A stretch of DNA of 64,000 nucleotides from an uncultured Candidatus Saccharibacteria bacterium (GTDB taxonomy: Bacteria; Patescibacteriota; Minisyncoccia; SW-4-49-11), in contig CAZPCB010000003.1 of the NCBI GenBank assembly GCA_964585065.1, positions 67,776-131,775 on the forward strand, read 5' to 3'. Under the pieces are notes generated by a model. That model was not told the origin of the DNA, did no database searches, and saw nothing but the letters and a program-made list of their open reading frames with translations. Within the stretch, counting starts at the first letter, position 1. Every line of letters starts with the position of its first letter. The translations under genes and the position numbers were made by a program. This document shows, piece by piece, positions 46-49,616 of the stretch.

Positions 46-2157
46 TTATTTCGCCACTTCTCGAATAGATCTATTTCCTAAACTATTTATTGACCCACAA
101 GTTGCCTCATCACTATTAATACCCCCAGCATTTAGCTGTGCTTTTATGTCATATTTTCCTAGTCCCAAATTAATTGCATCACTATAATTTAAATCTACTG
201 TATTATTTAAAGCTGAATTACTATATATCAAATCAGTGCCTATTCCCCTTTTTACCCTCCATTCATATGGGCCACTCCAGGTTGGATCTCCAATAAGATT
301 AAGTTTAATTATATTATTATTCTCTGCGACCACTTTATTCTGTAAATTACAAGATATACTTGGTCTTGGTCTTACGGTAACTGTAATACTAGAACTTCTT
401 GATGGACCATCTATTGCTGAGCAGGTACTGGTGAATATATATGTTGCATTAGATCTGATATTAGGATCTATTTGTTCTCGAGAAGGGGGAGAGATCCAAT
501 CATTGGTTGTGGTGTCGCTAATAAAATTACCTCCCGCAGCTACTGGTCCTCCCGTAACGGTATTGCTACATCCTGTTAATACCTCTCTATTTACTATTGT
601 TCTTGATATATTAACAAAATCTCCCTGTTTTAAATCAGTACTAATATTACTACTCAATGTTACCAGAGCTTCTCTTCCTTTTGTATTTAAACTTACTGTT
701 ACGGGTTCTATTGCATTTCCTCCTGGCTTTGAGATACAGTTAATGGTAAAATTATATGTCCTATCTAATTGGCTTAATGCTAATATAGCATTTTCTGTAT
801 TGGGTGACTCTAAGGCAGCTTTATTACCTGTCCATATCCCATTTCCTGCATCTGTTCCTCCTGTTGTTGAAGCATTACAACTTTGTACTCCTATTGGATT
901 TGTTATACTCCAAGTAAATTGTATCCCATCTCCTGCTATGGTTTCTCCTCCATTACTATCTATTACATTAAAATTAATATTAGCTTGTGGATAAGATTGT
1001 GTAATAAATTCTGGTCCATCTACCCAACCTGAGCTTGCTTTTGCATTACCAACTTGTACACGGGTATAATATTTTGTCCCTGGAATTAGTTTTCCCCTAT
1101 TTTGAGGGAAAAAGTCTGTAGAGGTGTCATTGCTCGTCTTTGCTCCAGCTCCAGCAAGACTTCCTGTCTGTGGTTCTCCTGACCATATAACTATATCGTT
1201 TGGATTGAAGCTATCAGTGGTAGATATCTGAGTATTCCACCATGTTTGAGCATCTCCATCTGCATCACTATAACTCCATGATACCATTCCGTCATTATAT
1301 CCAACTCCTTGTGCTTGTATATTACTTATTGTGGGTGGATTGTCTGGGATGACTGACGTGATGGTGTAATAAAGGGGTGATGGTGTGAAGGCTGAACTAC
1401 CAACTCTTTCAGGAGAATACACCATATCAGACCCCCCATCATTAGTACAAAATGGCCCTGTAGCGGTTACCCATTGCCCTCCTCCATCTCCTCCTGCATC
1501 CACCCATATTATTTGGTCACAATCATACATTACAGGTTGAAATGTAGCCTCTCCTCTTATTACAACATAATAGGGGTATATGTTAGAACTGGTATTATAC
1601 CAATTTACGGTAATAGTAGATGTACCATTTCCACTAGCTGTACATGTTTTTCCTGAACAGCTTACTGCTGCTGGATTAGAGCTTGTTAAATAATAATCCC
1701 AATAATCAGCAATACCTCCAGTAAAAGGTATCCATGCATCTTTATCAAAAGCTTCATGAGTACTAGACCCTCGTCTATATTCCCATACCGTTTGACCATC
1801 TAAATAGGGAGTTCCATAAAATCCTCCTGCAAAATTATATGATCCTGTAGTATAAGAAGCACCGCTGTAAATTGTAGTTCCTGCTATTACTGAATCATTT
1901 TGTCCTAAATGTCTATCTGTAACTAAATTAAATTCTTTTGTTAAAGTTATTGACATATAATCAAGGGCATATATTTGACCTGTATCAGGACCCTGATCTC
2001 CATTGGTATTACTAAGATTCATAGTACCATATTGATAGTCATGGGTTAGGGGTACACTAAGTGCCCTTACATTATAAGGAAATAGGAATAAGCTAAACAG
2101 AAATAGTCCTATACTTAATGGTAATATTCTATTGAGTTGAAATATATTCTTATTCAT
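46..2157 (-). CDS. Large secreted or cell-surface protein (703 aa). N-terminal signal peptide, rich in Thr/Ser/Gly/Asn, no recognisable catalytic motif.
   Basis: Long ORF. The N-terminus MNKNIFQLNRILPLSIGLFLFSLFLFPYNVRALS looks like a signal peptide. Abuts the next surface protein gene. Confidence 0.45.
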   Translation of the reverse strand: MNKNIFQLNRILPLSIGLFLFSLFLFPYNVRALSVPLTHDYQYGTMNLSNTNGDQGPDTGQIYALDYMSITLTKEFNLVTDRHLGQNDSVIAGTTIYSGASYTTGSYNFAGGFYGTPYLDGQTVWEYRRGSSTHEAFDKDAWIPFTGGIADYWDYYLTSSNPAAVSCSGKTCTASGNGTSTITVNWYNTSSNIYPYYVVIRGEATFQPVMYDCDQIIWVDAGGDGGGQWVTATGPFCTNDGGSDMVYSPERVGSSAFTPSPLYYTITSVIPDNPPTISNIQAQGVGYNDGMVSWSYSDADGDAQTWWNTQISTTDSFNPNDIVIWSGEPQTGSLAGAGAKTSNDTSTDFFPQNRGKLIPGTKYYTRVQVGNAKASSGWVDGPEFITQSYPQANINFNVIDSNGGETIAGDGIQFTWSITNPIGVQSCNASTTGGTDAGNGIWTGNKAALESPNTENAILALSQLDRTYNFTINCISKPGGNAIEPVTVSLNTKGREALVTLSSNISTDLKQGDFVNISRTIVNREVLTGCSNTVTGGPVAAGGNFISDTTTNDWISPPSREQIDPNIRSNATYIFTSTCSAIDGPSRSSSITVTVRPRPSISCNLQNKVVAENNNIIKLNLIGDPTWSGPYEWRVKRGIGTDLIYSNSALNNTVDLNYSDAINLGLGKYDIKAQLNAGGINSDEATCGSINSLGNRSIREVAK

Positions 2158-2159
2158 AT

Positions 2160-3662
2160 CTATTTCTTTATTAATTTAGCTATTGTTTTCCTTTGTAAAT
2201 ATATAGCATATATTGCTCCCAATACTATTAGTATAAGCCCGAATATTCCCAAGACAGTTCCTAATAATCCCTCAAATTGACCTTCTTTAGCACAAGCACT
2301 CACATCTATTGCATTACAATCATAGGGTATAGTTACGGTATCTACTATGTTTCCTGAGGCATCTTTTATAGTTGAGACTACAGTTAGCTTATTATATGTC
2401 TTATTCTTTGGTAAATCTGCTGTTATAGCATCAACGTGTTCACTTACTGGTCCTTTGTAAAGACTTTTTGCTATTTCTTTTCCTTTCGCATTTAATACTT
2501 TTGTCTCTACTTCTATATCGCTCGCTATACCATAGCTAGTATTATGTATACAGGTTACTACTTTCGCATCTTGTCCTGCTATCTTAGGAAAACTATTAAG
2601 ACCAACCCAGTTAAAACGCACTGCATTTGCACCTGCTCCTGAAAATCGTATATTACTTATACTTTTATATTGTTGCGCTGGGGCGATATCTCCCGCTTTT
2701 GTTGCAGTTAATTTGAGATAATATACGGATAATTCTACTTTATCTACTGTTCTTGTTATTAATACTTCTCCCTTTGCTGGGACTTTGATAATTTCTTTTT
2801 CTTCTTTTTGTAATTCTTCTTTTCTGAGTCCATCCCAACTATATAATTGTGAGGTTAATTCCATATCTTGGGCTTTATCTGTATTATTCTTTAATGGTAT
2901 TTTTACTTGTACTTTTGATCCTTTCTCTTGGCTAGCTAAAAATCCATGATTAATATTCTTTTGATCTCCTACCATAGTACGGGTTTGATCTAGATATACT
3001 TGCTCAGTATTATTACCTCCTACCTTAAAGCTCACTTTATATCCTACTACATCATCCGTAAATGGAAGACCTGATAATGTGAATCTATCTTGTTGATAAG
3101 CAAAGAACAATAATTGATAATCCCCTTTTGGTGCTTGTAGGTTGAGATTATATATTTGGCTTATATCTATTTTTTCATTTGCTTTAATACTTACATCTTT
3201 TGCTATTATAAACTCATCTAATGTGGTTGTATAAGCTTGGTCATTCGCATTAGGAATATTCTTAACTAGTCTCGCTGCTACAGTAAGTCCTGTAACAGGA
3301 TAGGCATTTTCATTCTTTATATTCCCTTTTAATTGTATAATATCTCCTGATGTATATTGAGGCTTATCTTGACTTATATCTATCTTTATACTTCCAAATT
3401 TGTATGTATCCATACAATTTCCTAATGCTCCTGCTTTTACTCCTCCTGCTTCTAATTGACTCTTATAGGTTGGTGGTTTTTGTTGATTCTTTACTATTGC
3501 ATCTATTTGCTCTTTGGTTGGGGTTGTTTTTCCTGGCTTAAATTTTATCTCACCTGTTATTAATTCTGTATTTTGATTTTCTTGAGCTATTACTGCCATT
3601 GATGGTAATAATAGACTTAGGGCAAATACTATATATATTCCTTTTTGTATTATTTCTTTCAT
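2160..3662 (-). CDS. Surface protein with N-terminal signal peptide and C-terminal transmembrane anchor (500 aa)
   Basis: The N-terminus MKEIIQKGIYIVFALSLLLPSMAVIAQ looks like a signal peptide. The C-terminal hydrophobic helix LLGTVLGIFGLILIVLGAIYAIY is followed by basic residues. Its start lies 2 nt downstream of the stop of the 46-2157 gene, which suggests an operon. Confidence 0.45.
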   Translation of the reverse strand: MKEIIQKGIYIVFALSLLLPSMAVIAQENQNTELITGEIKFKPGKTTPTKEQIDAIVKNQQKPPTYKSQLEAGGVKAGALGNCMDTYKFGSIKIDISQDKPQYTSGDIIQLKGNIKNENAYPVTGLTVAARLVKNIPNANDQAYTTTLDEFIIAKDVSIKANEKIDISQIYNLNLQAPKGDYQLLFFAYQQDRFTLSGLPFTDDVVGYKVSFKVGGNNTEQVYLDQTRTMVGDQKNINHGFLASQEKGSKVQVKIPLKNNTDKAQDMELTSQLYSWDGLRKEELQKEEKEIIKVPAKGEVLITRTVDKVELSVYYLKLTATKAGDIAPAQQYKSISNIRFSGAGANAVRFNWVGLNSFPKIAGQDAKVVTCIHNTSYGIASDIEVETKVLNAKGKEIAKSLYKGPVSEHVDAITADLPKNKTYNKLTVVSTIKDASGNIVDTVTIPYDCNAIDVSACAKEGQFEGLLGTVLGIFGLILIVLGAIYAIYLQRKTIAKLIKK

Positions 3663-5153: not shown

Positions 5154-6356
5154 TTATACCGTAATTTTGATAATATATTTTTTCCCTTTTTGAATAATAT
5201 ATTCTGATACATTATTCTGATTAAGTTCAAAAAAAATATCTTGTATTATTTCTTGATTTACCTTTACTCCCCCTTCTTGAATAGCTCTCTTGGCCTCAGA
5301 ATTAGATAAGTCGAAAACTTTAGCCATTACGGCAAATAGACGCTTATCCTCTATCTCACCTATTGATATAGTCTCTATAGTATCGGGAATTTCTTGTTTA
5401 CTAAATAATTGTTCAAAATATTGCCGAGCTTTCCCCGCCTCATCTTCATTATAATATCGTTTTACAATGGCTGAGGCCAATACCAACTTAATATCTCTTG
5501 GGTTTACTCCTGATTCTAATTGCTTGTGATAATTCTCAATATCAGCATTGGGTATATCAGTAGTGAGACGAAAATAATCAATAATAAGTTTATCTTTTAT
5601 TGCCATTATACTGGTAAACATTTCATTTGGAGTATCGGTAATAAAAATACCATTACCCCAAGAAGTACTCATTTTTCTACCATCTATACCCAGTAATAAT
5701 TCAAAAGTAACGATATCTTGTGACTCTTGATTATAATATTTTTGAACTTTACGCCCCGATATAAGATTAAAATACTGATCATTGCCCCCAATTTCTAAAT
5801 CTGACTTTACCATTACTGAATCATAACCTTGTATGAGAGGATATAAAAACTCCCTTAAACTAATTCTGGTATGGGATTTATGTCTTTCACTAAAATTATC
5901 CCTATCTAACATTTCATTGACTGAGAATATATTGGCTATTTCACTTAGGGTATCAAAAGAAAGGCTTTCAAGCCATTCTGAATTATATCGTATTTCTACT
6001 TTTGATATATCTAAAATCTTTCCAATTTGATCAAGATATCCTTTTAGATTATTATTAATTTCCTCCTTAGTAAGCATTGGTCGCTCTGAGTCTTTATCAG
6101 AAGCATCCCCAATACGAGCAGTAAAGTCTCCAATAATAAGAGTAATATGATGGCCCCAATCTTGCAATTGTCGTAATTTCCAAAAAGGTACAGCTCTTCC
6201 GAGATGTATTTTATCCCCTGTTGGATCAATTCCAAATTTTACTCGAAGTTGCCTACCAGATCCCAATTGCTCCTTTAAATGTTCTTTATCTATATAATTT
6301 GTAACACCTCTTGTTAGCCATTCTTGAACTTTACTCTCATCTGTTATTATTGCCAT
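5154..6356 (-). CDS. tyrS: Tyrosyl-tRNA synthetase
   Basis: Class I core with an IHLG (HIGH-like) motif and KMSTS (KMSKS), plus a C-terminal S4-like domain. Confidence 0.85.
   Translation of the reverse strand: MAIITDESKVQEWLTRGVTNYIDKEHLKEQLGSGRQLRVKFGIDPTGDKIHLGRAVPFWKLRQLQDWGHHITLIIGDFTARIGDASDKDSERPMLTKEEINNNLKGYLDQIGKILDISKVEIRYNSEWLESLSFDTLSEIANIFSVNEMLDRDNFSERHKSHTRISLREFLYPLIQGYDSVMVKSDLEIGGNDQYFNLISGRKVQKYYNQESQDIVTFELLLGIDGRKMSTSWGNGIFITDTPNEMFTSIMAIKDKLIIDYFRLTTDIPNADIENYHKQLESGVNPRDIKLVLASAIVKRYYNEDEAGKARQYFEQLFSKQEIPDTIETISIGEIEDKRLFAVMAKVFDLSNSEAKRAIQEGGVKVNQEIIQDIFFELNQNNVSEYIIQKGKKYIIKITV
5173..5220. repeat. tyrS 3'-end segment that is duplicated at 3754-3800
   Basis: See partner repeat. 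This copy is coding and gives the C-terminal ...IIQKGKKYIIKITV of TyrRS. Confidence 0.6.
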
Positions 6357-24546: not shown

Positions 24547-27537
24547 ATGGCTTCAATAAATAAACAATCAAATCGCCAAAGTTTTCGAGAAAAACTCCAG
24601 ACCAATACAGCTGCGGGGTCAAATTTAACATTAATTCGAAAAAAAGAAGAGGAATTAGCTACACAAAGAAAAGCTGATTCTCTTGGTATTGCCTATATTA
24701 ATTTGAAATTCATTCCTATTAATCCTGATGCTCTTAAAATCTTGACTCGTGAACAAGCCCAGAAGGCTGGTATGATTATATTTCAACGCTCAGGAATTCA
24801 TCTCAAAATTGCTATTGGAGATATTAATAATATTCTTACAAAAACAGTTTTACAACAATTTTATCAAAAAGAATATCAAATAGAACTATATTTGGTATCA
24901 AAATATAGTCTTGAAAAAGGATATGCTTCTTATGATTTTCTGCAGGATAGAGGACAAATTGTAAAAGATAGACTACTTATTCCAGAGTATATGATAGAAG
25001 ATACTCAGAGTGATATTGTAAAACTGGAAGATTTTGCTCAAAAAATTAATTCCGTAGAAACTTCAGAATTAATTCAAATGATTTGTGCAGGAGCTATATC
25101 CTCTTTTGCTAGCGATATACATATTGAACCCAAAGGATCTTTTACTCGTCTTCGTTATCGTATTGATGGAGTTTTACAAGATATTTTAAATTTTGATGCT
25201 AATCTTTATAAATCTCTCATATCCCGTATCAAGAATCTTGCATCATTAGTGCTTAATGTTAAAAGCACTTCACAAGATGGACGATTTAGTATTGTGATTG
25301 TCGATAAAGATGGTGCTAATAAACAAACTATTGATGTAAGAGTTTCTATATTGCCGAGTAAAACAGGAGAAATTATTGTAATGCGATTATTGAATACCGA
25401 AATTCACAATTTAGATATTTATTCATTTGGAATTAGACCACCCTTTCTAGATATTATTTTAAGAAATCTTGAGAAATCCCAAGGTATGATTATGTTATCA
25501 GGGCCTACAGGATCAGGAAAAACTACCAGTCTTTATTCTTTTCTAAATTATATAAATAGAAGTGAGACCAATATTATTACTCTTGAGGACCCAATTGAAT
25601 ATCGATTACAAAATATCAATCAAACTCAAGTTGATATTAAAAAGGGATATACTTTTGCTAATGGATTAAAAGCCATCGTAAGACAAGACCCCGATGTGAT
25701 TATGATTGGAGAAATTAGAGACAATGATACTGCCAATATTGCAGTGAATGCTTCTATTACTGGTCATCTCGTATTCTCTACTATCCACACCAATGATTCC
25801 GTAGGTATTGTAACCAGATTACAAGAATTTGATGTAGCCCCCCCACTTATTATATCTGCCATGAATTTATTTATTGCTCAAAGATTATTGCGGCGATTAT
25901 GTGAATGTAAAGAGGAATATATTCCATCAGAGGAAGAGGTCACCACAATTAATCATGCTCTTGCTATTATTTCTCCTAAATCTAATATAACCATACCCAA
26001 AGAAGTAACTAAATTATATAAACCCAAAGGTTGTCCCAAATGTTATGGGATTGGATATAAAGGGCGTCTTGCTATTTATGAGTTATTTGAAGCTCGTGAC
26101 AATATTAAAGAATTAATTAGTAATAATATCCCTGAATTCAAAATATTTCGTAAAGCTATAGAAAATGGAATGGTAACCTTATTCCAAGATGGAATTCTGC
26201 ATGCTATTGATGGAGAAACTTCATTTGAAGAAGTCTTAGCTGTAGCTGGGGATATAAATTATATTGAAGAATTATATGAGTCAACCCTTACGTCAGCATT
26301 ATCTCGTGGAATTCATATAAAAGCAAGTAATACCCCTCCTCAAATTAGTCAATTGTCTGAGTCTATGTCAATTAATGATCAATTAACTACTATTACTACG
26401 GCAGCCCTCTCAAAAAGAGCTACTGATATTCACCTTGAGCCTGATGAGGGGGATTTGATTATACGATTTCGTATTGATGGAGTTTTGTATGAAGAAGCTC
26501 GTATTCCAAAATCTCTTTATCCTCAAATTTTAACCCAAATCAAAATATTCTCAGGTCTAGCTCTGGATATTAGCAATACTATTCAGGAGGGAAGATTTAC
26601 TATTTTTGCTGAGAAAAATTTTGATGTAAGAGTTTCTATTATTCCTGGAGGATATGGTCAAACTATTGTACTTCGTATTTTAAGATCAGATATTGCAAGT
26701 CTTGGGCTTAAAGATCTTGGAATGGATGAATATAATATTGGGCTCCTCAAAGCTCAACTCAAAGCAACTACTGGGCTTATACTGGTAACAGGCCCTACTA
26801 GTGCTGGGAAATCGACAACACTTTATGCAACACTTAATACCCTCAATCAGCCTGGGGTGAAAATTATTACCATTGAAGATCCAATTGAATATAAATTATC
26901 AGGAATTCTCCAAACGAGTATTAATGAAGAGACTGGTTATAGTTTTCCCAATGCTATTAGAGCTTTATTGAGACAAAACCCTAATATTGTGCTTATTGGA
27001 GAAATTCGAGATAATGAAACTGCTAAAGTTGCTATGCAAACAGCAGCAACGGGACATCTTTTGCTATCTACTTTGCATACTAATGATGCTGCTTCTGCAA
27101 TTTTGAGATTATATGATTTGGGTGTTGGTCTTTCTGAAATTGCTGCCTTTGTTAATGTTACTATTGCTCAACGTATTATTCGTAAACTTGACCCAGCTAC
27201 CGCTACTCCTATCACTTTAACTGATGAACAAAAAGATATTATTCGCTCTAAATTACCAGAACATTATCATAATCTTATTCCTGATACTATATTACAAGCT
27301 AATTCAAGCCCCGATCATCCCGATGGGTATCTTGGTATTATGGCTATATTTGAAGTACTTGTTATTAGTCCTACTATTAAAGAAATTATTATTAGTCAGG
27401 CCTCCACAGCTCGTATTAAAGATTTAGCTATTAAAGAGGGCATGACAACCTTGGAAGTTTCTGGTATTCTAAAGGTATTAGATCATACTACTGATTTTGC
27501 TGAAATTGAACGGGTATTAGGAATTACAGTATTATAA
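24547..27537 (+). CDS. pilB: Type IV pilus/type II secretion assembly ATPase with two complete GspE/PilB ATPase cores fused in tandem (996 aa)
   Basis: N-terminal T2SSE_N-like domain, then core 1 with Walker A GPTGSGKTT, Asp box ITLEDPIEY, Walker B VIMIGEIRD, His box TGHLVFSTIHTND and a tetracysteine CECK...CPKC. A second core follows with GPTSAGKST, ITIEDPIEY, IVLIGEIRD and TGHLLLSTLHTND, and no Cys4. No stop or frameshift lies between them. Confidence 0.85.
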   Translation: MASINKQSNRQSFREKLQTNTAAGSNLTLIRKKEEELATQRKADSLGIAYINLKFIPINPDALKILTREQAQKAGMIIFQRSGIHLKIAIGDINNILTKTVLQQFYQKEYQIELYLVSKYSLEKGYASYDFLQDRGQIVKDRLLIPEYMIEDTQSDIVKLEDFAQKINSVETSELIQMICAGAISSFASDIHIEPKGSFTRLRYRIDGVLQDILNFDANLYKSLISRIKNLASLVLNVKSTSQDGRFSIVIVDKDGANKQTIDVRVSILPSKTGEIIVMRLLNTEIHNLDIYSFGIRPPFLDIILRNLEKSQGMIMLSGPTGSGKTTSLYSFLNYINRSETNIITLEDPIEYRLQNINQTQVDIKKGYTFANGLKAIVRQDPDVIMIGEIRDNDTANIAVNASITGHLVFSTIHTNDSVGIVTRLQEFDVAPPLIISAMNLFIAQRLLRRLCECKEEYIPSEEEVTTINHALAIISPKSNITIPKEVTKLYKPKGCPKCYGIGYKGRLAIYELFEARDNIKELISNNIPEFKIFRKAIENGMVTLFQDGILHAIDGETSFEEVLAVAGDINYIEELYESTLTSALSRGIHIKASNTPPQISQLSESMSINDQLTTITTAALSKRATDIHLEPDEGDLIIRFRIDGVLYEEARIPKSLYPQILTQIKIFSGLALDISNTIQEGRFTIFAEKNFDVRVSIIPGGYGQTIVLRILRSDIASLGLKDLGMDEYNIGLLKAQLKATTGLILVTGPTSAGKSTTLYATLNTLNQPGVKIITIEDPIEYKLSGILQTSINEETGYSFPNAIRALLRQNPNIVLIGEIRDNETAKVAMQTAATGHLLLSTLHTNDAASAILRLYDLGVGLSEIAAFVNVTIAQRIIRKLDPATATPITLTDEQKDIIRSKLPEHYHNLIPDTILQANSSPDHPDGYLGIMAIFEVLVISPTIKEIIISQASTARIKDLAIKEGMTTLEVSGILKVLDHTTDFAEIERVLGITVL

Positions 27538-43692: not shown

Positions 43693-44307
43693 ATGCCCGC
43701 CGTCAAACCGACTAGACAAGAAGCCCTCAAACTCAAAAAGAAGATTAAAACTGCTTCTCGCGGACATAGTTTGCTCACCGACAAAAGAGATGGACTGATA
43801 CAAGAATTCCTAGCCATTATCCAAGAAGTAATCAAGCTAAGAGGAGAATTAACCCCCAAAATTGTAGAAGCCATACAATTATTTGAATTTGCTCAGACCA
43901 AAATCTCAACCGAAGCCATCCAAGAGCTAATACATCTCTCACAAGCCAAAACCTATCTGGAATTACAAAAAAAATCTATTATGGGAGTCACAATCCCACA
44001 TATAATCCCTCATTTACAGGGAGACCCTTTTCAATATGGTACATTAGGCACCCCCAAAGATTTAGACCAAGCCCTCTTAACCTTGCAGAATATATTACCT
44101 CTATTAGTCAAATTAGCTGAGATAGAATTCACCGCTAGACTACTCGCTGAGGAAATAGAAGCCACCAGAAGACGAGTCAATGCTCTAGAATATGTCATCA
44201 TACCCGAGATGAAAACCAATCTCAAATCCATCCAAAATGCACTAGACGAACTCACCCGCCAAGAAAAAGTCACCATAATGAAAGTCAAAGAAATTTTGGG
44301 ATTGTAG
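43693..44307 (+). CDS. ntpD: V/A-type ATPase subunit D (central stalk)
   Basis: N-terminus MPAVKPTRQEALKLKKKIKTASRGHSLLTDKRDGL, which is typical of subunit D. Confidence 0.85.
   Translation: MPAVKPTRQEALKLKKKIKTASRGHSLLTDKRDGLIQEFLAIIQEVIKLRGELTPKIVEAIQLFEFAQTKISTEAIQELIHLSQAKTYLELQKKSIMGVTIPHIIPHLQGDPFQYGTLGTPKDLDQALLTLQNILPLLVKLAEIEFTARLLAEEIEATRRRVNALEYVIIPEMKTNLKSIQNALDELTRQEKVTIMKVKEILGL
44249..44307 (+). repeat. Left direct repeat: the ntpD 3' end, duplicated at 48835-48893
   Basis: AACTCACCCGCCAAGAAAAAGTCAC is identical in both copies. Over the 59 nt that follow, the copies are about 85% identical, and both end in a stop codon. Confidence 0.8.
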
Positions 44308-45117: not shown

Positions 45118-46935
45118 TTAAGCAATAATATTCTTATACCAAGAGTTAATAATATTTTGAATTTCGTTAAGCCATTGATTTGAATCTGTAAAGTTTTGTG
45201 AATTATGAACTATTTCATCATATAAATAAGCTATCTCTCTGTGATTTAGAGTCCTTCCCTGCTCCTTAATTTTCACAAGTATTTTTAAAATTTGTACAAA
45301 GTTATTTATTGTTAGAGGTATTATATTTTGTTTTTGCCCTTCATATTCATACTTTACAGCTACCCAAAAAGTATTTAGTGTATCCCTATGAATTGTAGGT
45401 GCAATAAATAAACAGTATGTTTTTTTATCTCTATTCTGACTTTCAAAATCTCTTAAATGTCTCATCACTGGTTGTCCTTCATTATACCATTGATCACGAC
45501 TTTTGAGCATAGTTACCTCACAAATAGCATTAAATTCCTTATAGTAGCACTCAATGTCTGGAGTATTTGCAGGAGCTGTAAAAGTTGGCTCATTATCATC
45601 TCCAACGGGATAATTGGGTTTTATTTTCAAAGCATCATTTAAAGCATTAAGCCCTAATGCGGATAACTTTTCTAATAAAACTGGTCTGTCCTCAAAATCA
45701 AATATATTTTCTAATTTATGAATATAATCATTAATTTGATCTATATCTTGCGAGTTTTGATGATTTTCTTCATCTTGTAATTCTCTTCTATACTGTCTAA
45801 GATCTGAAATATATTTCTTTAATTCTTGATCATTAAGATTTTCATAATTTCTAATTTGAATTTTTTTTATATTTAGTTTTTTTTCATATTTTTTAATTTC
45901 AATAATAATACTTGATAAAATCTTTTTATATTCTTTTTCTGATTCCCACGGTAATTTAGGTTCTAAAATGTCAGAGACATATTCTAAATATTGTTCCTTG
46001 GTTTCAAATTGTATAACTGATGCATTATCAAATTTAAGTAAATTATCAATTTCTACTTTTCTTCTCGGTTCTAAATCAACATAAAATCCTCCACCTCGAA
46101 TAAAAAGAAAGCGGGTTAAACGAAAATATCTTATGGCATTATCTCCATAATCCTTTAAATTTTTAAGCATTTTATTTATTTCTTCTGGCTTGCTTGTACC
46201 TAAAAATTCTTGAGCAAAAACTTTTTTATAATTATCAAAAATTTGCTTTTGTTCCTGCTTACTTTTTCCTTTTTGCTCCTCTCTCAGCCTCAAAATTTGA
46301 TTTGCATAATTCTCAATATCTTTAAAATTAACAAGACTAGGTATAAATAAAGAAAATTCTTGTTTACTAATTCCTTTTGTTTTTTCACCATTATTTAAAC
46401 ATTTTTGATTAACTAAGTTTATTAGATGTAATGTTCCAATAAAAGGTTTTATATTATACCCTTCTTCTAACTTATAGTCTGATGAATCTGGATTTGGTAA
46501 TTGCCATTTTAGGAAACTTCTAAAGAATATTTCTCCTAAATCAAAATCATCTTGTAGGAATAATCTTCCTAAACTAGTAATAAAGATTTTTTCATCTTTT
46601 ATTATAACAAGTCCAATCTTTTTAAGTGGATTTATTGACTGTCGACCTCTCATTGCTGGATCCTCATAATTTTTTGAGTTAAAAATTTCTTCTGCTTGTT
46701 TAAAAGAGATATTTTGTGTCTGATCATCAATCAAATCAATTTGCTCTTTATTTAAACCGTTATAAAATTGTGTACTTCCGTACCCATACACTCTCTCTTT
46801 TATCAATAAAATTTGAAATTTTCTTTGATTTTCCAAATTCCAATATTGACCTTCTAATTGACTTAGAACTATTAAAAAACTCCTTAGTCTTTCAGGATTT
46901 CTTAAAGTTGTTGTTATTGACCAAAGTTTTTTCAT
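45118..46935 (-). CDS. AlwI/PleI/MlyI/N.BstNBI-family type IIS restriction endonuclease
   Basis: N-terminus WSITTTLRNPERLRSFLIVLSQLEGQYW matches the family hallmark (SPRSPEK...FEGSYW in N.BstNBI as recalled). C-terminal YCLFIAP segment is shared. 605 aa against about 604. Confidence 0.75.
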   Translation of the reverse strand: MKKLWSITTTLRNPERLRSFLIVLSQLEGQYWNLENQRKFQILLIKERVYGYGSTQFYNGLNKEQIDLIDDQTQNISFKQAEEIFNSKNYEDPAMRGRQSINPLKKIGLVIIKDEKIFITSLGRLFLQDDFDLGEIFFRSFLKWQLPNPDSSDYKLEEGYNIKPFIGTLHLINLVNQKCLNNGEKTKGISKQEFSLFIPSLVNFKDIENYANQILRLREEQKGKSKQEQKQIFDNYKKVFAQEFLGTSKPEEINKMLKNLKDYGDNAIRYFRLTRFLFIRGGGFYVDLEPRRKVEIDNLLKFDNASVIQFETKEQYLEYVSDILEPKLPWESEKEYKKILSSIIIEIKKYEKKLNIKKIQIRNYENLNDQELKKYISDLRQYRRELQDEENHQNSQDIDQINDYIHKLENIFDFEDRPVLLEKLSALGLNALNDALKIKPNYPVGDDNEPTFTAPANTPDIECYYKEFNAICEVTMLKSRDQWYNEGQPVMRHLRDFESQNRDKKTYCLFIAPTIHRDTLNTFWVAVKYEYEGQKQNIIPLTINNFVQILKILVKIKEQGRTLNHREIAYLYDEIVHNSQNFTDSNQWLNEIQNIINSWYKNIIA

Positions 46936-46937
46936 AA

Positions 46938-48746
46938 TTATTTCCTTACTCTACAATAAAATATTCTCTCAGCATTGCCATCTACATCACTTTTTCCAGT
47001 AGTAAATGCCTTATAGTCTTTTTCAAATATTTCAATATCTCCCTTTTGTTTTAAAATCCTAACAATGTCTTCATCTTTTATTCTTGCATTAGACCTATCA
47101 TCTTTTGAATTTGCTGTATTATTGTAAGATAATAATATATGGTTACAATTTGCATTTTTAATCAGATCTTCAAAAACCTGTGTGGCATTTTTCAAACAAT
47201 AAGCACTTTTTATATGTGATCGATCCATTTTCCTACCAATACCTTCAACTTTTGGCTGTTTCCACTCTGATAAATTTTCTAATAAATGATAAGCATCACT
47301 ATATTGTCTTGAATTATACGGGGGATCAATATACAAAACATCACAGGAAATTTTACGAATCAATAGGTTGGCATCTTCATTGTAAACCTCATTTTGTGAG
47401 TTATTTGAATAATCAATGTCTGGGACTAAAAGTTTTAGTGGATTAACCGAATCAAGTTTTTTTCTAAACGCATCATAATGTCCAACTGTATTTGCAACTT
47501 TATCAACAGCATAAATTAAAGAACAAATTAGAATATTTTTCTCCTCTTCATTTTTTGCAATTTTTTCTATCTCTTCACGAATTGCACCTATTTTTTTTGC
47601 ATTTTCAATTGTAAAAAAAGTACCCCCAAAATTTTTTGAAAAGTAATTTTCATCTTTTACCTCTAAGCTATTTAAATGGTTAATTCTTTGAATAATATCC
47701 TTTTTAACATTATTTTTTGTGCCTAAAAATGCTTTTAGACAGACATAGTTTGAATTTAATAAGTCATTGGATATAATCTTAATATTCCCATTATTAAACC
47801 TATCTCCTACTACTCCAGTACCTGAAAAAACATCAAATAATGACTCTATATCACCACATTTCTCAGCGATTATATCTTCAATAAAACCAATTAATTTATA
47901 TTTATTACCTAAATATCTACGATTTTGTAATTGAAAAAAGTTATTCTTTGATTGTTTTGGTTGAAAATATATCTTTTCTATTTTCTTAATACTTGTCTCA
48001 TACACTGGTTTTTCTATTTCTAAATAATCAAATAGTCCACTTTGTATACAATCAGCAACATATTCTAAAACTTTTTTATCATCCTTTAACTCTTCAAAAA
48101 AACTATACTCATCATTTTCAGAAATAATCAAAAAATCTATTACAGGGATTCCCATTAGCTCTCCTGCTTGAGTTATTTTTTTAACTACTTCTTTATCTCT
48201 TTCACTTGGTGAGGAGTCTCCTGAGGGATGATTATGTACCAAAATTATACTTGCTGAATGTAATTCAACAGCGGGATGAAAAATTTCTCTTGGATGTAAT
48301 AAACTTTTATCTAGCAACCCAACACTGATTATTTCTTTTTTAATTAAAACATTTCTTGCATTAAGATATAAGCAAACTAAATATTCTTTTTTCTTGTCTC
48401 TCAAATCATAATTTAAATCTAAAACATCTTTTGAATTTTTGACAACTATTTCTTTTCCTTTTTTCTCTTCATAATATCTTTTTAATAAAGCAATGGAGGC
48501 AACAATTTGTAAGGCTTTTGCTTGCCCAATTCCATCAATTTTTTGTAAATCATCAACAGTAACATTTAAAAATTTATCACTAAATTTTTTTACAACTTGA
48601 TTAGCAAGCTCCTGTACATTCTTACCTTTTATCCCACTTCCTAAAACAATAGCCAAAAGATCACTTTTAGAAAGTGCCTCTGGTCCTTTTTTGAGAAATT
48701 TTTCTCTTGGACGAAGTATTACTGGAGTGTCTTTAATTTTAGACAT
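46938..48746 (-). CDS. Fusion protein: N-terminal RadC-like JAB/MPN domain plus C-terminal Dam-like (D12 class, alpha) N6-adenine DNA methyltransferase
   Basis: The N-terminal 220 aa carry a RadC HhH region and a JAMM-type motif HNHPSGDSSPSERD. The C-terminal half has YLGNKYKL, DVFSGTGVV (motif I), ISNDLLNSNYVCL, IDPPYNSRQY (motif IV) and HILLSYNN. This is collinear with E. coli Dam. Confidence 0.8.
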   Translation of the reverse strand: MSKIKDTPVILRPREKFLKKGPEALSKSDLLAIVLGSGIKGKNVQELANQVVKKFSDKFLNVTVDDLQKIDGIGQAKALQIVASIALLKRYYEEKKGKEIVVKNSKDVLDLNYDLRDKKKEYLVCLYLNARNVLIKKEIISVGLLDKSLLHPREIFHPAVELHSASIILVHNHPSGDSSPSERDKEVVKKITQAGELMGIPVIDFLIISENDEYSFFEELKDDKKVLEYVADCIQSGLFDYLEIEKPVYETSIKKIEKIYFQPKQSKNNFFQLQNRRYLGNKYKLIGFIEDIIAEKCGDIESLFDVFSGTGVVGDRFNNGNIKIISNDLLNSNYVCLKAFLGTKNNVKKDIIQRINHLNSLEVKDENYFSKNFGGTFFTIENAKKIGAIREEIEKIAKNEEEKNILICSLIYAVDKVANTVGHYDAFRKKLDSVNPLKLLVPDIDYSNNSQNEVYNEDANLLIRKISCDVLYIDPPYNSRQYSDAYHLLENLSEWKQPKVEGIGRKMDRSHIKSAYCLKNATQVFEDLIKNANCNHILLSYNNTANSKDDRSNARIKDEDIVRILKQKGDIEIFEKDYKAFTTGKSDVDGNAERIFYCRVRK

Positions 48747-48834
48747 TATATTTTATTACTTTTTTCATTTACTATTATACCACAATTTATACTTCTCTTC
48801 CAATTTATGTACTAGGTGACTACAATTTGTAGCC

Positions 48835-48893
48835 AACTCACCCGCCAAGAAAAAGTCACAATTATGAAGGTCAAAGAAATTTTAGAATTGTAA
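48835..48893 (+). repeat. Right direct repeat (second copy of the ntpD 3' end)
   Basis: AACTCACCCGCCAAGAAAAAGTCAC AATTATGAAGGTCAAAGAAATTTTAGAATTGTAA would encode ..TRQEKVTIMKVKEILEL*. Confidence 0.8.
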
Positions 48894-49172
48894 TTTCACG
48901 ATTTTTAATTAAAAAAATAGTTTTGCTGAATTTTATTGTGGGCATACCCTAACTGTCCCATTTTTGAAGACATTTGAGTTGTGCTTTAGATCTCTAAAGA
49001 AAAGATCTAAAAACTCCAGTTATCCGATTTTCTCGGACAACTCACTTCCCTTCCAATCTATCTTGGATGTTTCTAATATTTTTTAGTTTATATAGAGATT
49101 ATTAAGGGAACATCATATTGACAAAATGTGTTATATATATTAATGTTTTGATACCTAAGAGAGATTTTTCTC

Positions 49173-49562
49173 TTGAAGGATTGTTCTTTTACCTACAAAA
49201 ACATGACAACTGATCACAACCCTGTGACTAAACTTAAAGAAGAACTTGAAATTACAATAGCTCAAGATCAAGATTTAGCAAATGTGATGGGTATATCCTT
49301 AAACCAGCTATATGCTATTTATAATCTTATTTATAATTTAGCTGGAAATACAACAGATAGAGACCGTAATATCACGCTATCTTATTATTCAATAAAAGGG
49401 CTTATTACTACGACAGATATACATAAAGTAGATTCAGATAAAGCTTTAGATTTGTGGAATATAGCCCGAGCCCATTATAATGATTTATTATCTAGTGGAT
49501 CTATCCAATATGAGCCACTTGTATCTAGACTAGATTCTGATATATTGATTTTAAATATTTAG
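49173..49562 (+). CDS. Hypothetical protein (129 aa, or 119 aa from the ATG at 49203)
   Basis: ORF only, no recognised motifs. Followed by a strong terminator. Confidence 0.35.
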   Translation: MKDCSFTYKNMTTDHNPVTKLKEELEITIAQDQDLANVMGISLNQLYAIYNLIYNLAGNTTDRDRNITLSYYSIKGLITTTDIHKVDSDKALDLWNIARAHYNDLLSSGSIQYEPLVSRLDSDILILNI

Positions 49563-49575
49563 AGAGGTTGTGATT

Positions 49576-49616
49576 AAAAAACTACTATCCCGATTACGAG
49601 TATCGGGATTTTTTAT
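49576..49616. terminator. Bidirectional rho-independent terminator
   Basis: AAAAAA-ctact-ATCCCGAT-TACGAGT-ATCGGGAT-TTTTTAT: a perfect 8-bp stem flanked by A-runs on one side and T-runs on the other. The stop of the P-type ATPase gene lies in the U-tract. Confidence 0.8.

Follow-up and report, generated by a model that had tools for sequence, protein, structure and literature searches.

A RadC-headed adenine methyltransferase in a mobile Type IIS restriction-modification cassette of uncultivated bacteria

Results

Organization of the cassette

The sequence analysed is a stretch of 64,000 nucleotides (nt) from an uncultured Candidatus Saccharibacteria bacterium (assembly GCA_964585065.1, contig CAZPCB010000003.1, positions 67,776 to 131,775), hereafter called the window. 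One uninterrupted open reading frame (ORF) on its minus strand, 46938..48746, encodes a protein of 602 amino acids (aa), in which a RadC head is joined through a linker to an adenine DNA methyltransferase (MTase). This fusion gene, M1, is the first of three co-oriented genes, and is followed after 2 nt by an endonuclease gene, in turn separated by 14 nt from a second MTase gene, M2 (Table 1). The endonuclease fits the RE_AlwI model over positions 2-441 of 441 (E 6e-87, 293 bits), and is matched as well by the structures of Nt.BspD6I (E 1e-34) and by the PADLOC REase_II model named 'nicking endonuclease' (452 bits). M2 carries a DPPY motif at residue 30 and a FMGSG motif at residue 220, an N6_N4 enzyme of CcrM/HinfI-like type matching the CcrM-like model of NCBIfam below its cut-off. 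With an AlwI-family endonuclease adjacent to co-oriented MTases, the locus is predicted to be a Type IIS restriction-modification (R-M) system of the AlwI family. The GC content of the cassette (0.27-0.29) is lower than that of the flanks (0.34-0.40).

Table 1. Features of the cassette and of its borders in the window
Feature	Position	Strand	Basis or remark
Left copy of the 58-nt direct repeat, true 3' end of the V-ATPase D-subunit gene atpD	44249..44306	+	repeat search
M2, beta-class N6/N4 DNA MTase, 258 aa	44327..45103	-	Pfam N6_N4_Mtase, E 5e-63
AlwI-family Type IIS restriction endonuclease, 605 aa, intact	45118..46935	-	Pfam RE_AlwI
M1, fusion gene (RadC head, linker, D12-class m6A MTase), first of the cassette	46938..48746	-	ORF, Pfam, NCBIfam
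D12-class (alpha-group) N6-adenine DNA MTase domain of M1	46941..47915	-	Pfam PF02086
DPPY, catalytic motif, residues 474-477	47316-47327	-	verified
FSGTG, S-adenosylmethionine (AdoMet) motif, residues 307-311	47814-47828	-	verified
Inter-domain linker, residues 219-277	47916..48092	-	holds mosaic breakpoints
QSGLF, residues 235-239, matching the beta-sliding-clamp binding consensus	48030..48044	-	coordinates verified
RadC-type JAB/MPN domain, residues 103-218	48093..48440	-	Pfam PF04002
JAMM motif H171-D184, HNHPSGDSSPSERD, residues 171-184	48195-48236	-	coordinates verified
UPF0758_N / helix-hairpin-helix DNA-binding domain of the RadC head, residues 4-78	48513..48737	-	Pfam PF20582
Strongest promoter-like site (TTGGAA and TG-TATAAT, 18-nt spacer), lying 28 nt before the fusion ATG	48774..48803	-	consensus match alone
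Right copy of the 58-nt direct repeat, orphan atpD 3'-end remnant	48835..48892	+	repeat search

The fusion gene

Three Pfam models account for the fusion protein. UPF0758_N (PF20582) covers the N-terminal helix-hairpin-helix (HhH) region with 75.7 bits against a cut-off of 27.1 (E 3e-21), in a region also recognized by HHH (E 3e-4) and modelled by AlphaFold2 (AF2) with a predicted local distance difference test score (pLDDT) >90. RadC JAB (PF04002) scores 124 bits (cut-off 22.1, E 4e-36), MethyltransfD12 (PF02086) matches residues 278-533 with 120.4 bits (cut-off 22, E 1.5e-34). The protein also passes the cut-offs of the RadC equivalog NF000642 of NCBIfam (213.6 bits against 180) and of TIGR00608 (201.6 bits against 133.85), and is matched by the PADLOC MTase_II model (378 bits). 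The mean pLDDT of the whole AF2 model is 89.5. The JAB domain of the model superimposes on the structure of Chlorobium RadC (2QLC) with a TM score of 0.89, a root-mean-square deviation of 1.8 A and 42% identity, and matches it by sequence at E 1e-26. All the residues of the JAMM signature E...HxH(x7)S(x2)D, namely E154, H171, H173, S181 and D184, are in place.

In the MTase half FSGTG (residue 307) precedes DPPY (residue 474), the motif order of the alpha-group. The closest solved fold is E. coli Dam, at 13-14% identity and a TM score of about 0.5, and no solved Dam, DpnM or T4Dam chain was matched by sequence at E<=1e-3. The MTase half is a D12-class enzyme which is only distantly Dam-like and does not belong to Dam proper. 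Moreover, the fusion gene shares an operon with a restriction endonuclease, and is hence not an orphan methylase as Dam proper is.

A previous reading of this DNA (the original prediction) had recognized both domains and their boundaries, the JAMM stretch, the FSGTG and DPPY motifs, and an operon with a Type IIS endonuclease and a HinfI-like MTase. The profile matches, all far above cut-offs, the verified positions of the motifs, the Pfam assignments of the two partners and the short gaps between the genes bear it out on each of these points, and neither a stop nor a frameshift splits the two halves. The same reading called the C-terminal part collinear with E. coli Dam, which is true at the level of family and fold, and not at that of sequence.

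A sequencing or assembly artefact, or a read-through product, was considered and rejected. The 120 best protein clusters are all full-length (about 600 aa), share the same three domains and are 69-99% identical, and an identical copy is found in an independent assembly (L071) over 9.8 kb. The fusion is confirmed to be a real single gene. At present such proteins are labelled 'DNA repair protein RadC' or 'adenine-specific DNA-methyltransferase', and whichever label is used, half of the protein is concealed. The promoter-like site listed in Table 1 is the best of the region, where the number of such sites does not exceed the expectation from shuffled sequence.

Distribution of the cassette

Scanning one genome per species returned 64 loci, all in metagenome-assembled genomes. 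Many of the hosts are Patescibacteria, and the others belong to Cloacimonadota, Planctomycetota, Omnitrophota, Atribacterota, Gammaproteobacteria and Campylobacterota, with one Thermoplasmatota bin. According to a tblastn census the same three genes occur in the same order in about 30 of the 64 loci. Gene content and order in clade A of this census are those of the window. In clade B the head is 61-75% identical, the D12 domain just 42-45%, and the fusion gene is followed by a second, small D12 MTase together with a distant AlwI-like endonuclease. Full-length fusions were found in no plasmid, phage or IMG/VR viral record. In cultured Firmicutes, the closest relatives of the D12 domain are the halves of double MTases encoded beside AlwI-family endonucleases.

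The RadC head as a portable module

The same head and linker, about 60-70% identical, are fused to MTases of at least three unrelated Pfam families, PF02086, PF01555 and PF00145. The head resides on a beta-class N6_N4 MTase beside a Type IIG enzyme (L059), on a divergent N6_N4 enzyme beside a NgoFVII-like endonuclease (L060, L061, P0223), and on C5-cytosine MTases (L062, P0143, P0150, P0155, P0217); in L062 a NgoFVII-like endonuclease and a Vsr gene come after the fusion. The fusion leads a Type II R-M cassette in every case examined. Fused heads are 60-92% identical across phyla, while standalone RadCs are at most 49% identical to them. In a neighbour-joining tree the fused heads make up a tight clade apart from standalone RadC, within which heads borne by different types of MTase are interleaved. 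The five JAMM residues are invariant in 10 heads drawn from four fusion types, which denotes selection on the catalytic site irrespective of the MTase partner. By these comparisons the RadC part is shown to be a dedicated lineage of complete RadC heads with intact JAMM residues.

Heads and cargo do not share the same history. L021 and L064, which carry clade A and clade B cargo, respectively, are 92% identical (aa) in the head and 44% in the MTase. In contrast, the corresponding values are 67% and 69% for L002 and L021, which share the clade A cargo, and 69% and 86% for L032 and L064, which share that of clade B. The head DNAs of L021 and L064 are 83-96% identical, and identity drops to about 50% at nucleotides ~700-760. 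Since the mosaic pairs break at the linker, heads and R-M cargo have been recombined there, and this has occurred repeatedly.

The census of fusion partners by a RadC-head profile is qualitative only, as the matches are mostly short contig-end fragments. No non-MTase partner of this head lineage was found. The relatives examined that looked like RadC alone were truncated MTase fusions, and P0367, which includes HATPase_c, looks chimeric. Aligning the upstream regions of 12 cassettes gave 31% column identity and no conserved element. Sequence-specific autoregulation by the RadC head was discarded on these grounds, and because homology to L013, a related cassette described below, begins exactly at the ATG.

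Some variants of the cassette deserve mention. A small HTH_3 controller-like gene, of the helix-turn-helix (HTH) type, ends a few nt before the fusion gene in L002 (7789-7998), L010 (5801-5998), L022 (189-398) and L044 (5789-5995). An excisionase-type HTH gene, or a conserved protein of roughly 90 aa, lies upstream of other cassettes (the regions upstream of L032 and L038 were considered as well); mostly nothing is found there, and nothing in the window. By eye, a sequence resembling the 3' end of a tRNA (GGTTCGAATCC...CCA) was spotted just upstream of the HTH_3 gene abutting the RadC-headed gene in L005 (about 30-90) and L021 (about 5870-5930), and insertion beside tRNA genes is possible for some cassettes. 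A truncated form recurs (L056 5930-9580, P0279, P0283, P0293, P0309), which ends '...RFNFNQ[CY]' after about 60 residues of the MTase. In L056 the MTase core and the endonuclease have given way to a gene of 286 aa and to a nuclease-like gene of PLD type, with an HKD motif, and the head and the beta-class MTase are kept.

LexA and other heads in the same slot

Headless forms and HTH_3-headed ones are found among the proteins closely related to the D12 domain. One protein, P0125, has a D12 domain 59% identical to that of the window and a complete LexA head, including the DNA-binding domain, the Ala-Gly cleavage site and the S24 peptidase. Of the features of self-cleaving LexA, it retains the AAG cleavage site, the GNSM motif of the Ser, and the Lys. 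In the sister cassette L068 the order of the genes is LexA-D12, AlwI-family endonuclease, beta-class MTase, and a gene of the DpnI family, a methyl-GATC-dependent family, overlaps the end of the cassette. LexA heads were identified in further clusters, five of D12 and at least eight of N6_N4 MTases, largely from Patescibacteria. A complete LexA is thus shown to occupy the slot of RadC in sister cassettes. No canonical SOS box was recognized upstream of the LexA-headed gene in L068, the one locus inspected.

N-terminal fusions of LexA to either D12 or N6_N4 MTases are seen in L068 (3121-8282), L069 and L070, and the collected LexA-MTase proteins are P0125, P0387-P0391, P0407, P0412, P0417, P0433, P0438, P0449, P0461 and P0469.

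A conserved motif in the linker

In the AF2 model residues 229-249 have a pLDDT <50, are predicted to be disordered, and lie between domains with pLDDT >90. The predicted TM score of 0.61 is consistent with two domains lacking a fixed mutual orientation. Outside the JAB domain Y229 and Q235 alone are invariant, and both fall in this low-pLDDT segment. Most linkers of RadC-headed proteins (181 of 195 distinct ones) contain Q..LF, generally in the form Q-x-[S/T]-L-F, and 12 of the 195 contain exactly QLSLF. The motif is expected by chance 0.004 times per 37-aa segment in this genome. It was found in none of 23 standalone RadCs, and is missing also from headless and HTH_3-headed D12 relatives. 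In turn, all six LexA-D12 fusions carry QLPLF between the S24 domain and the MTase. The QG[VI]LF of LexA-N6_N4 fusions is part of the C-terminal strand of LexA itself, and was not counted as a linker motif.

The linker varies at the DNA level. Identity is 0.75 at codon positions 1+2 and 0.46 at position 3, the Gln of the motif is encoded by its two codons in a 37:23 ratio, and all six Leu codons are in use. Such synonymous variation indicates selection at the protein level, and its abundance rules out that the linker is conserved as a DNA recombination site.

Insertion, mobility and decay

Two copies of a 58-nt direct repeat bracket the cassette in the window. They are imperfect (91% identity) and spaced by 4586. 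In relatives with the same AtpD protein, and about 79% DNA identity, synteny ends exactly at the atpD stop, and a different gene is found there. A clean empty site was not found, as relatives with an identical AtpD have another gene after atpD. L013 (Ca. Paceibacter), the nearest relative in a named genome, is 84% identical from the fusion ATG until 15 nt short of where the last gene ends, and the flanks show no homology. Homology restricted to the ORFs denotes that the mobile unit comprises hardly more than the three ORFs. In this genome the cassette is a horizontally mobile, three-gene unit inserted just after atpD.

Similarity of the right-hand repeat copy reaches about 106 nt in two sister strains (L077, L078). 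Mismatches between the copies are mostly at third codon positions, and the right copy may derive from the atpD of a relative rather than from a simple target duplication.

In the same sister strains the endonuclease gene is broken and both MTase genes are intact. The cassette is decaying there, endonuclease first, and loss of the endonuclease first is the usual order of R-M decay. Across the two strains (L077 4613-6430, L078 2322-4152) the endonuclease is split into ORFs of 260+186 or 118+391 aa, in cassettes 97-99% identical to that of the window.

Other features of the window

The stretch 48893-49612, between the cassette and a P-type ATPase gene, differs among strains. The window has there an ORF of 129 aa (49173..49562) with no Pfam family, L077 (1-2800) a DUF6194 gene, a Zn-ribbon protein and a Mrr_cat (Type IV restriction-like) gene, so that the region looks like a small defence island. 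Farther away, a protein of 996 aa (24547..27537, plus strand) has two stretches of the T2SSE (PilB-type) ATPase family, suggestive of a type IV pilus machinery, which would bear on DNA uptake by the host. Two large adjacent ORFs on the minus strand, of 703 aa (46..2157) and 500 aa (2160..3662), match no Pfam family at E<=1e-5, and the former is the sole member of its 90% identity cluster in a collection of 15 billion proteins.

Discussion

The fusion described here is real, and more general than the original prediction supposed. We hold the identity and the modularity of the RadC-headed MTase with high confidence. The cassette is of a known kind, that of Type IIS R-M systems of the AlwI family. 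No description was met of MTases bearing a RadC or LexA head joined by a clamp-motif linker, and no publication on RadC-MTase or LexA-MTase fusions was retrieved in a search that left most subscription journals and REBASE outside. The architecture, which had been termed unusual, is not rare, being widespread in uncultivated lineages.

As a rule, a Type IIS system includes a pair of MTases, each acting on one strand, and in AlwI the two are joined (PMC4081073). The view that the second MTase of the window is not obviously required did not hold, as two enzymes are the norm and the trio is conserved in about 30 loci. The AlwI system and its Staphylococcus/Enterococcus plasmid relatives likewise have an AlwI-family Type IIS endonuclease beside D12-class MTase(s), and two MTase activities. 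The D12 domain of the window shares 49% identity with the N-terminal half of the double MTases in these plasmid systems. There, however, both MTases are D12-class, headless, and part of one chain of ~700 aa, whereas M1 is a single D12 domain with a RadC head and linker, and M2 is separate, beta-class, and encoded after the endonuclease. A Dam-like GATC specificity, implied by the comparison with Dam in the original prediction, fits neither the 13-14% identity nor the nearest cultured relatives, which are halves of AlwI-type double MTases. The DpnI-family gene that follows the L068 cassette would be at odds with methylation of GATC, should its product share the specificity of DpnI.

BstNBI/BspD6I, MlyI and PleI, which act at GAGTC, share the RE_AlwI fold family with the endonuclease of the window, at remote similarity. 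The CcrM/HinfI-like beta-class M2 is compatible with a GANTC-type site. Unlike in the BspD6I group, a small-subunit gene is absent here; MlyI uses a single MTase, and natural nickases are known within the AlwI family (PMC4081073).

RadC has already been met in fusions (HhH-RadC, ArdC-RadC, primase-RadC, RadC-DinG helicases, polyvalent proteins of conjugative elements), which also combine a JAB domain with intact ligands and domains of DNA metabolism or conflict on mobile DNA. As far as the accessible parts of these papers go, the partners are ArdC, primase, DinG helicase and polyvalent effectors, not R-M MTases (PMC3239186, PMC5512222, PMC11981726). In contrast to those fusions, the full HhH plus JAB unit is here a portable N-terminal head on cellular Type II R-M MTases, with a conserved linker motif of its own. 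N-terminal regulatory HTH domains occur on R-M MTases, such as those of the SsoII type. SsoII-type MTases and C proteins offer a plausible analogy, as they likewise feature an extra N-terminal DNA-binding module, to be likened to the HTH_3-headed relatives of this MTase and to the HTH_3 genes abutting some cassettes. Yet, the HhH of RadC differs from an HTH that reads a specific sequence, the head includes an enzyme domain, and no conserved operator was found.

What the head and the linker do is a matter of interpretation, and all the mechanistic statements on the RadC-headed MTase made here were inferred computationally. The clamp-motif linker, the interchangeable heads and the presence of LexA in the same slot point in a direction more specific than the coupling to repair or processing, or the self-protection during transfer, guessed in the original prediction, though these are still conceivable. 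The role of RadC is probably DNA-associated, and linked either to damage or to replication. The best reading in our opinion, to which we give an even chance, is that of a clamp-tethered MTase provided with a head associated with DNA damage or single-stranded DNA (ssDNA). According to this reading, the Q-x-[S/T]-L-F of the disordered linker would be a beta-sliding-clamp binding motif, through which the MTase might dock on the clamps left on new DNA, at replication forks or at sites of repair or recombination synthesis. Fresh unmethylated strands would be modified ahead of cutting by the cognate endonuclease, in what may be a bacterial counterpart of the DNMT1-PCNA coupling. The head, made of HhH and JAB metallohydrolase in RadC, of winged HTH and S24 peptidase in LexA, would recognize, or respond to, ssDNA or DNA-damage structures found there.

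The consensus for binding to the beta-clamp is QL[S/D]LF / QxxLF, with positions 1, 4 and 5 critical (PMC12309361), and the same motif is used by transposases of mobile elements (PMC4549789). QSGLF is a QxxLF pentapeptide in an exposed and flexible segment, as in known binders, and clamp binding is predicted on this basis. Clamp-docked enzymes (DNMT1-PCNA; bacterial polymerases, MutS, Hda, IS transposases) have a short peptide of QxxLF type in a flexible region as a tether to the sliding clamp on new DNA, and M1 may be held in a like manner (PMC12309361, PMC4549789). The same literature search yielded no report of a bacterial R-M MTase using the clamp.

Docking of the linker on the sliding clamp, taken by itself, we place slightly below the even mark, and several observations weigh against it. 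The prediction is derived from a short linear motif. Q, L and F are the linker positions of top information in the conservation profile, in which Q is however fixed by the anchoring of the segments. Conservation extends beyond the pentapeptide (Y-6, G-2, DLLE at +5 to +8, Y+14), and the segment may have another function, or an additional one. The motif is lacking in headless and HTH_3-headed relatives of this MTase, which argues that clamp docking is no general need of the MTase, and its purpose may lie with the head and not with the MTase. The motif is missing as well from a minority head lineage (P0155, P0223). Moreover, the motif of the window has Gly at position 3, a residue that weakens clamp binding in E. 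coli at this position (PMC12309361). Finally, the clamp model assigns no role to the invariant JAMM site, and any specific role for the catalytic site of RadC is doubtful. A bolder version of the model, which we regard as rather unlikely, holds that RadC- and LexA-headed MTases constitute an undescribed class of replisome-coupled maintenance MTases, in which the linker keeps the enzyme on the beta clamp, and a head endowed with a peptidase, sensing ssDNA or DNA damage, tunes activity or stability. RadC might be viewed in such a case as a DNA-associated, LexA-like metallopeptidase module working at forks or gaps, given that either protein, in complete form, can fill the slot.

The finding, in the same cassette position, of a complete LexA with self-cleavage features, the recurrence of LexA heads on two MTase families, the HTH_3 heads and the invariance of the JAMM residues would all be accommodated also by a LexA-like, damage-responsive switch, either proteolytic or regulatory. 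The head would be cleaved, or would cleave, upon DNA damage or in the presence of RecA-ssDNA, for example after self-restriction, changing the amount, stability or location of the MTase, or the expression of the operon, and the conserved linker would be the segment recognized or cut. Such a switch looks unlikely. Upstream DNA is not conserved even between 84%-identical cassettes, hence there is no shared operator for a RadC repressor, and HhH domains bind DNA without sequence specificity. In some cassettes a separate HTH_3 controller gene is found directly upstream of the RadC head. A cleavage motif shared by two unrelated peptidases, S24 and JAB, is improbable, and we know of no RadC for which autoproteolysis has been described.

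The pneumococcal DpnII system has two adenine MTases of different classes, one of which, DpnA, is competence-linked and protects incoming DNA. By analogy, the head could bring the MTase to transforming ssDNA or recombination intermediates, and integrated unmethylated DNA would not be lethal in transformable hosts, even if DpnA is a separate beta-class enzyme under transcriptional regulation, not a fusion as the RadC-headed M1 is. In its favour, the S24 domain of LexA recognizes RecA-ssDNA filaments, Patescibacteria and other uncultivated lineages make up most of the hosts, and a PilB-type pilus ATPase is encoded in the window. Targeting of this kind would also agree with loading of the clamp during synthesis associated with recombination. 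Induction of radC along with the competence genes is known from several bacteria, both Gram-positive and Gram-negative (PMC4630621, PMC6237807), and conjugative elements, which enter as ssDNA, carry RadC paralogues beside anti-restriction functions (PMC3239186, PMC5512222). Against this stands the dispensability of RadC for transformation wherever tested (PMC4630621, PMC6237807). Targeting to ssDNA alone also leaves the QxxLF motif unexplained. We consider the hypothesis somewhat less probable than the proteolytic switch.

A further hypothesis takes RadC as a nuclease, or DNA-processing partner, that handles ends or nicks produced by the AlwI-family enzyme, or degrades restricted DNA. Iyer and Aravind predicted such an activity from the positional equivalence of RadC with a 3'-5' exonuclease in DinG fusions (PMC3239186). 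The invariance of the catalytic residues and the existence of natural nickases in the AlwI family are in line with it. The same head, however, serves unrelated endonucleases (AlwI-like, PLD/NgoFVII-like, Type IIG), is attached to the protective MTase and not to the nuclease, and is intact in L077 and L078, in which the endonuclease gene is broken. As structural comparisons also give proteases, not nucleases, a role of this type is very improbable. Lastly, an accidental or neutral fusion, whereby a housekeeping radC was captured after losing its stop beside a landed R-M cassette, or an artefact, is effectively refuted: radC genes are common on chromosomes, genes can fuse when a stop codon is lost, and the linker is flexible with domains that fold independently, but the head lies inside the direct repeats and moves with the cassette into unrelated contexts and phyla, belongs to a clade of its own, much closer to fused heads of other phyla than to standalone RadC, has catalytic residues and a linker motif under purifying selection, is found on three MTase Pfam families, and is identical in sequence in independent assemblies.

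RadC is present in most bacteria, is induced in competence, resides on many mobile elements and has no known activity, its function being still termed unknown or putative in reviews of 2025-2026. The occurrence of one RadC lineage on MTases of any chemistry (N6-methyladenine alpha and beta, C5-methylcytosine) narrows the range of hypotheses on RadC. In turn, the mosaicism of heads and cargo provides a modular route to swap R-M specificities among uncultivated lineages such as Patescibacteria. If the bolder version of the model is true, the fusions would represent the first concrete functional context for the near-universal RadC. The conserved clamp-type motif on a protective MTase would be the first sign of R-M methylation coupled to the replisome, as in DNMT1-PCNA. 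Coupling to the clamp would then explain how toxic cassettes keep up with DNA synthesis.

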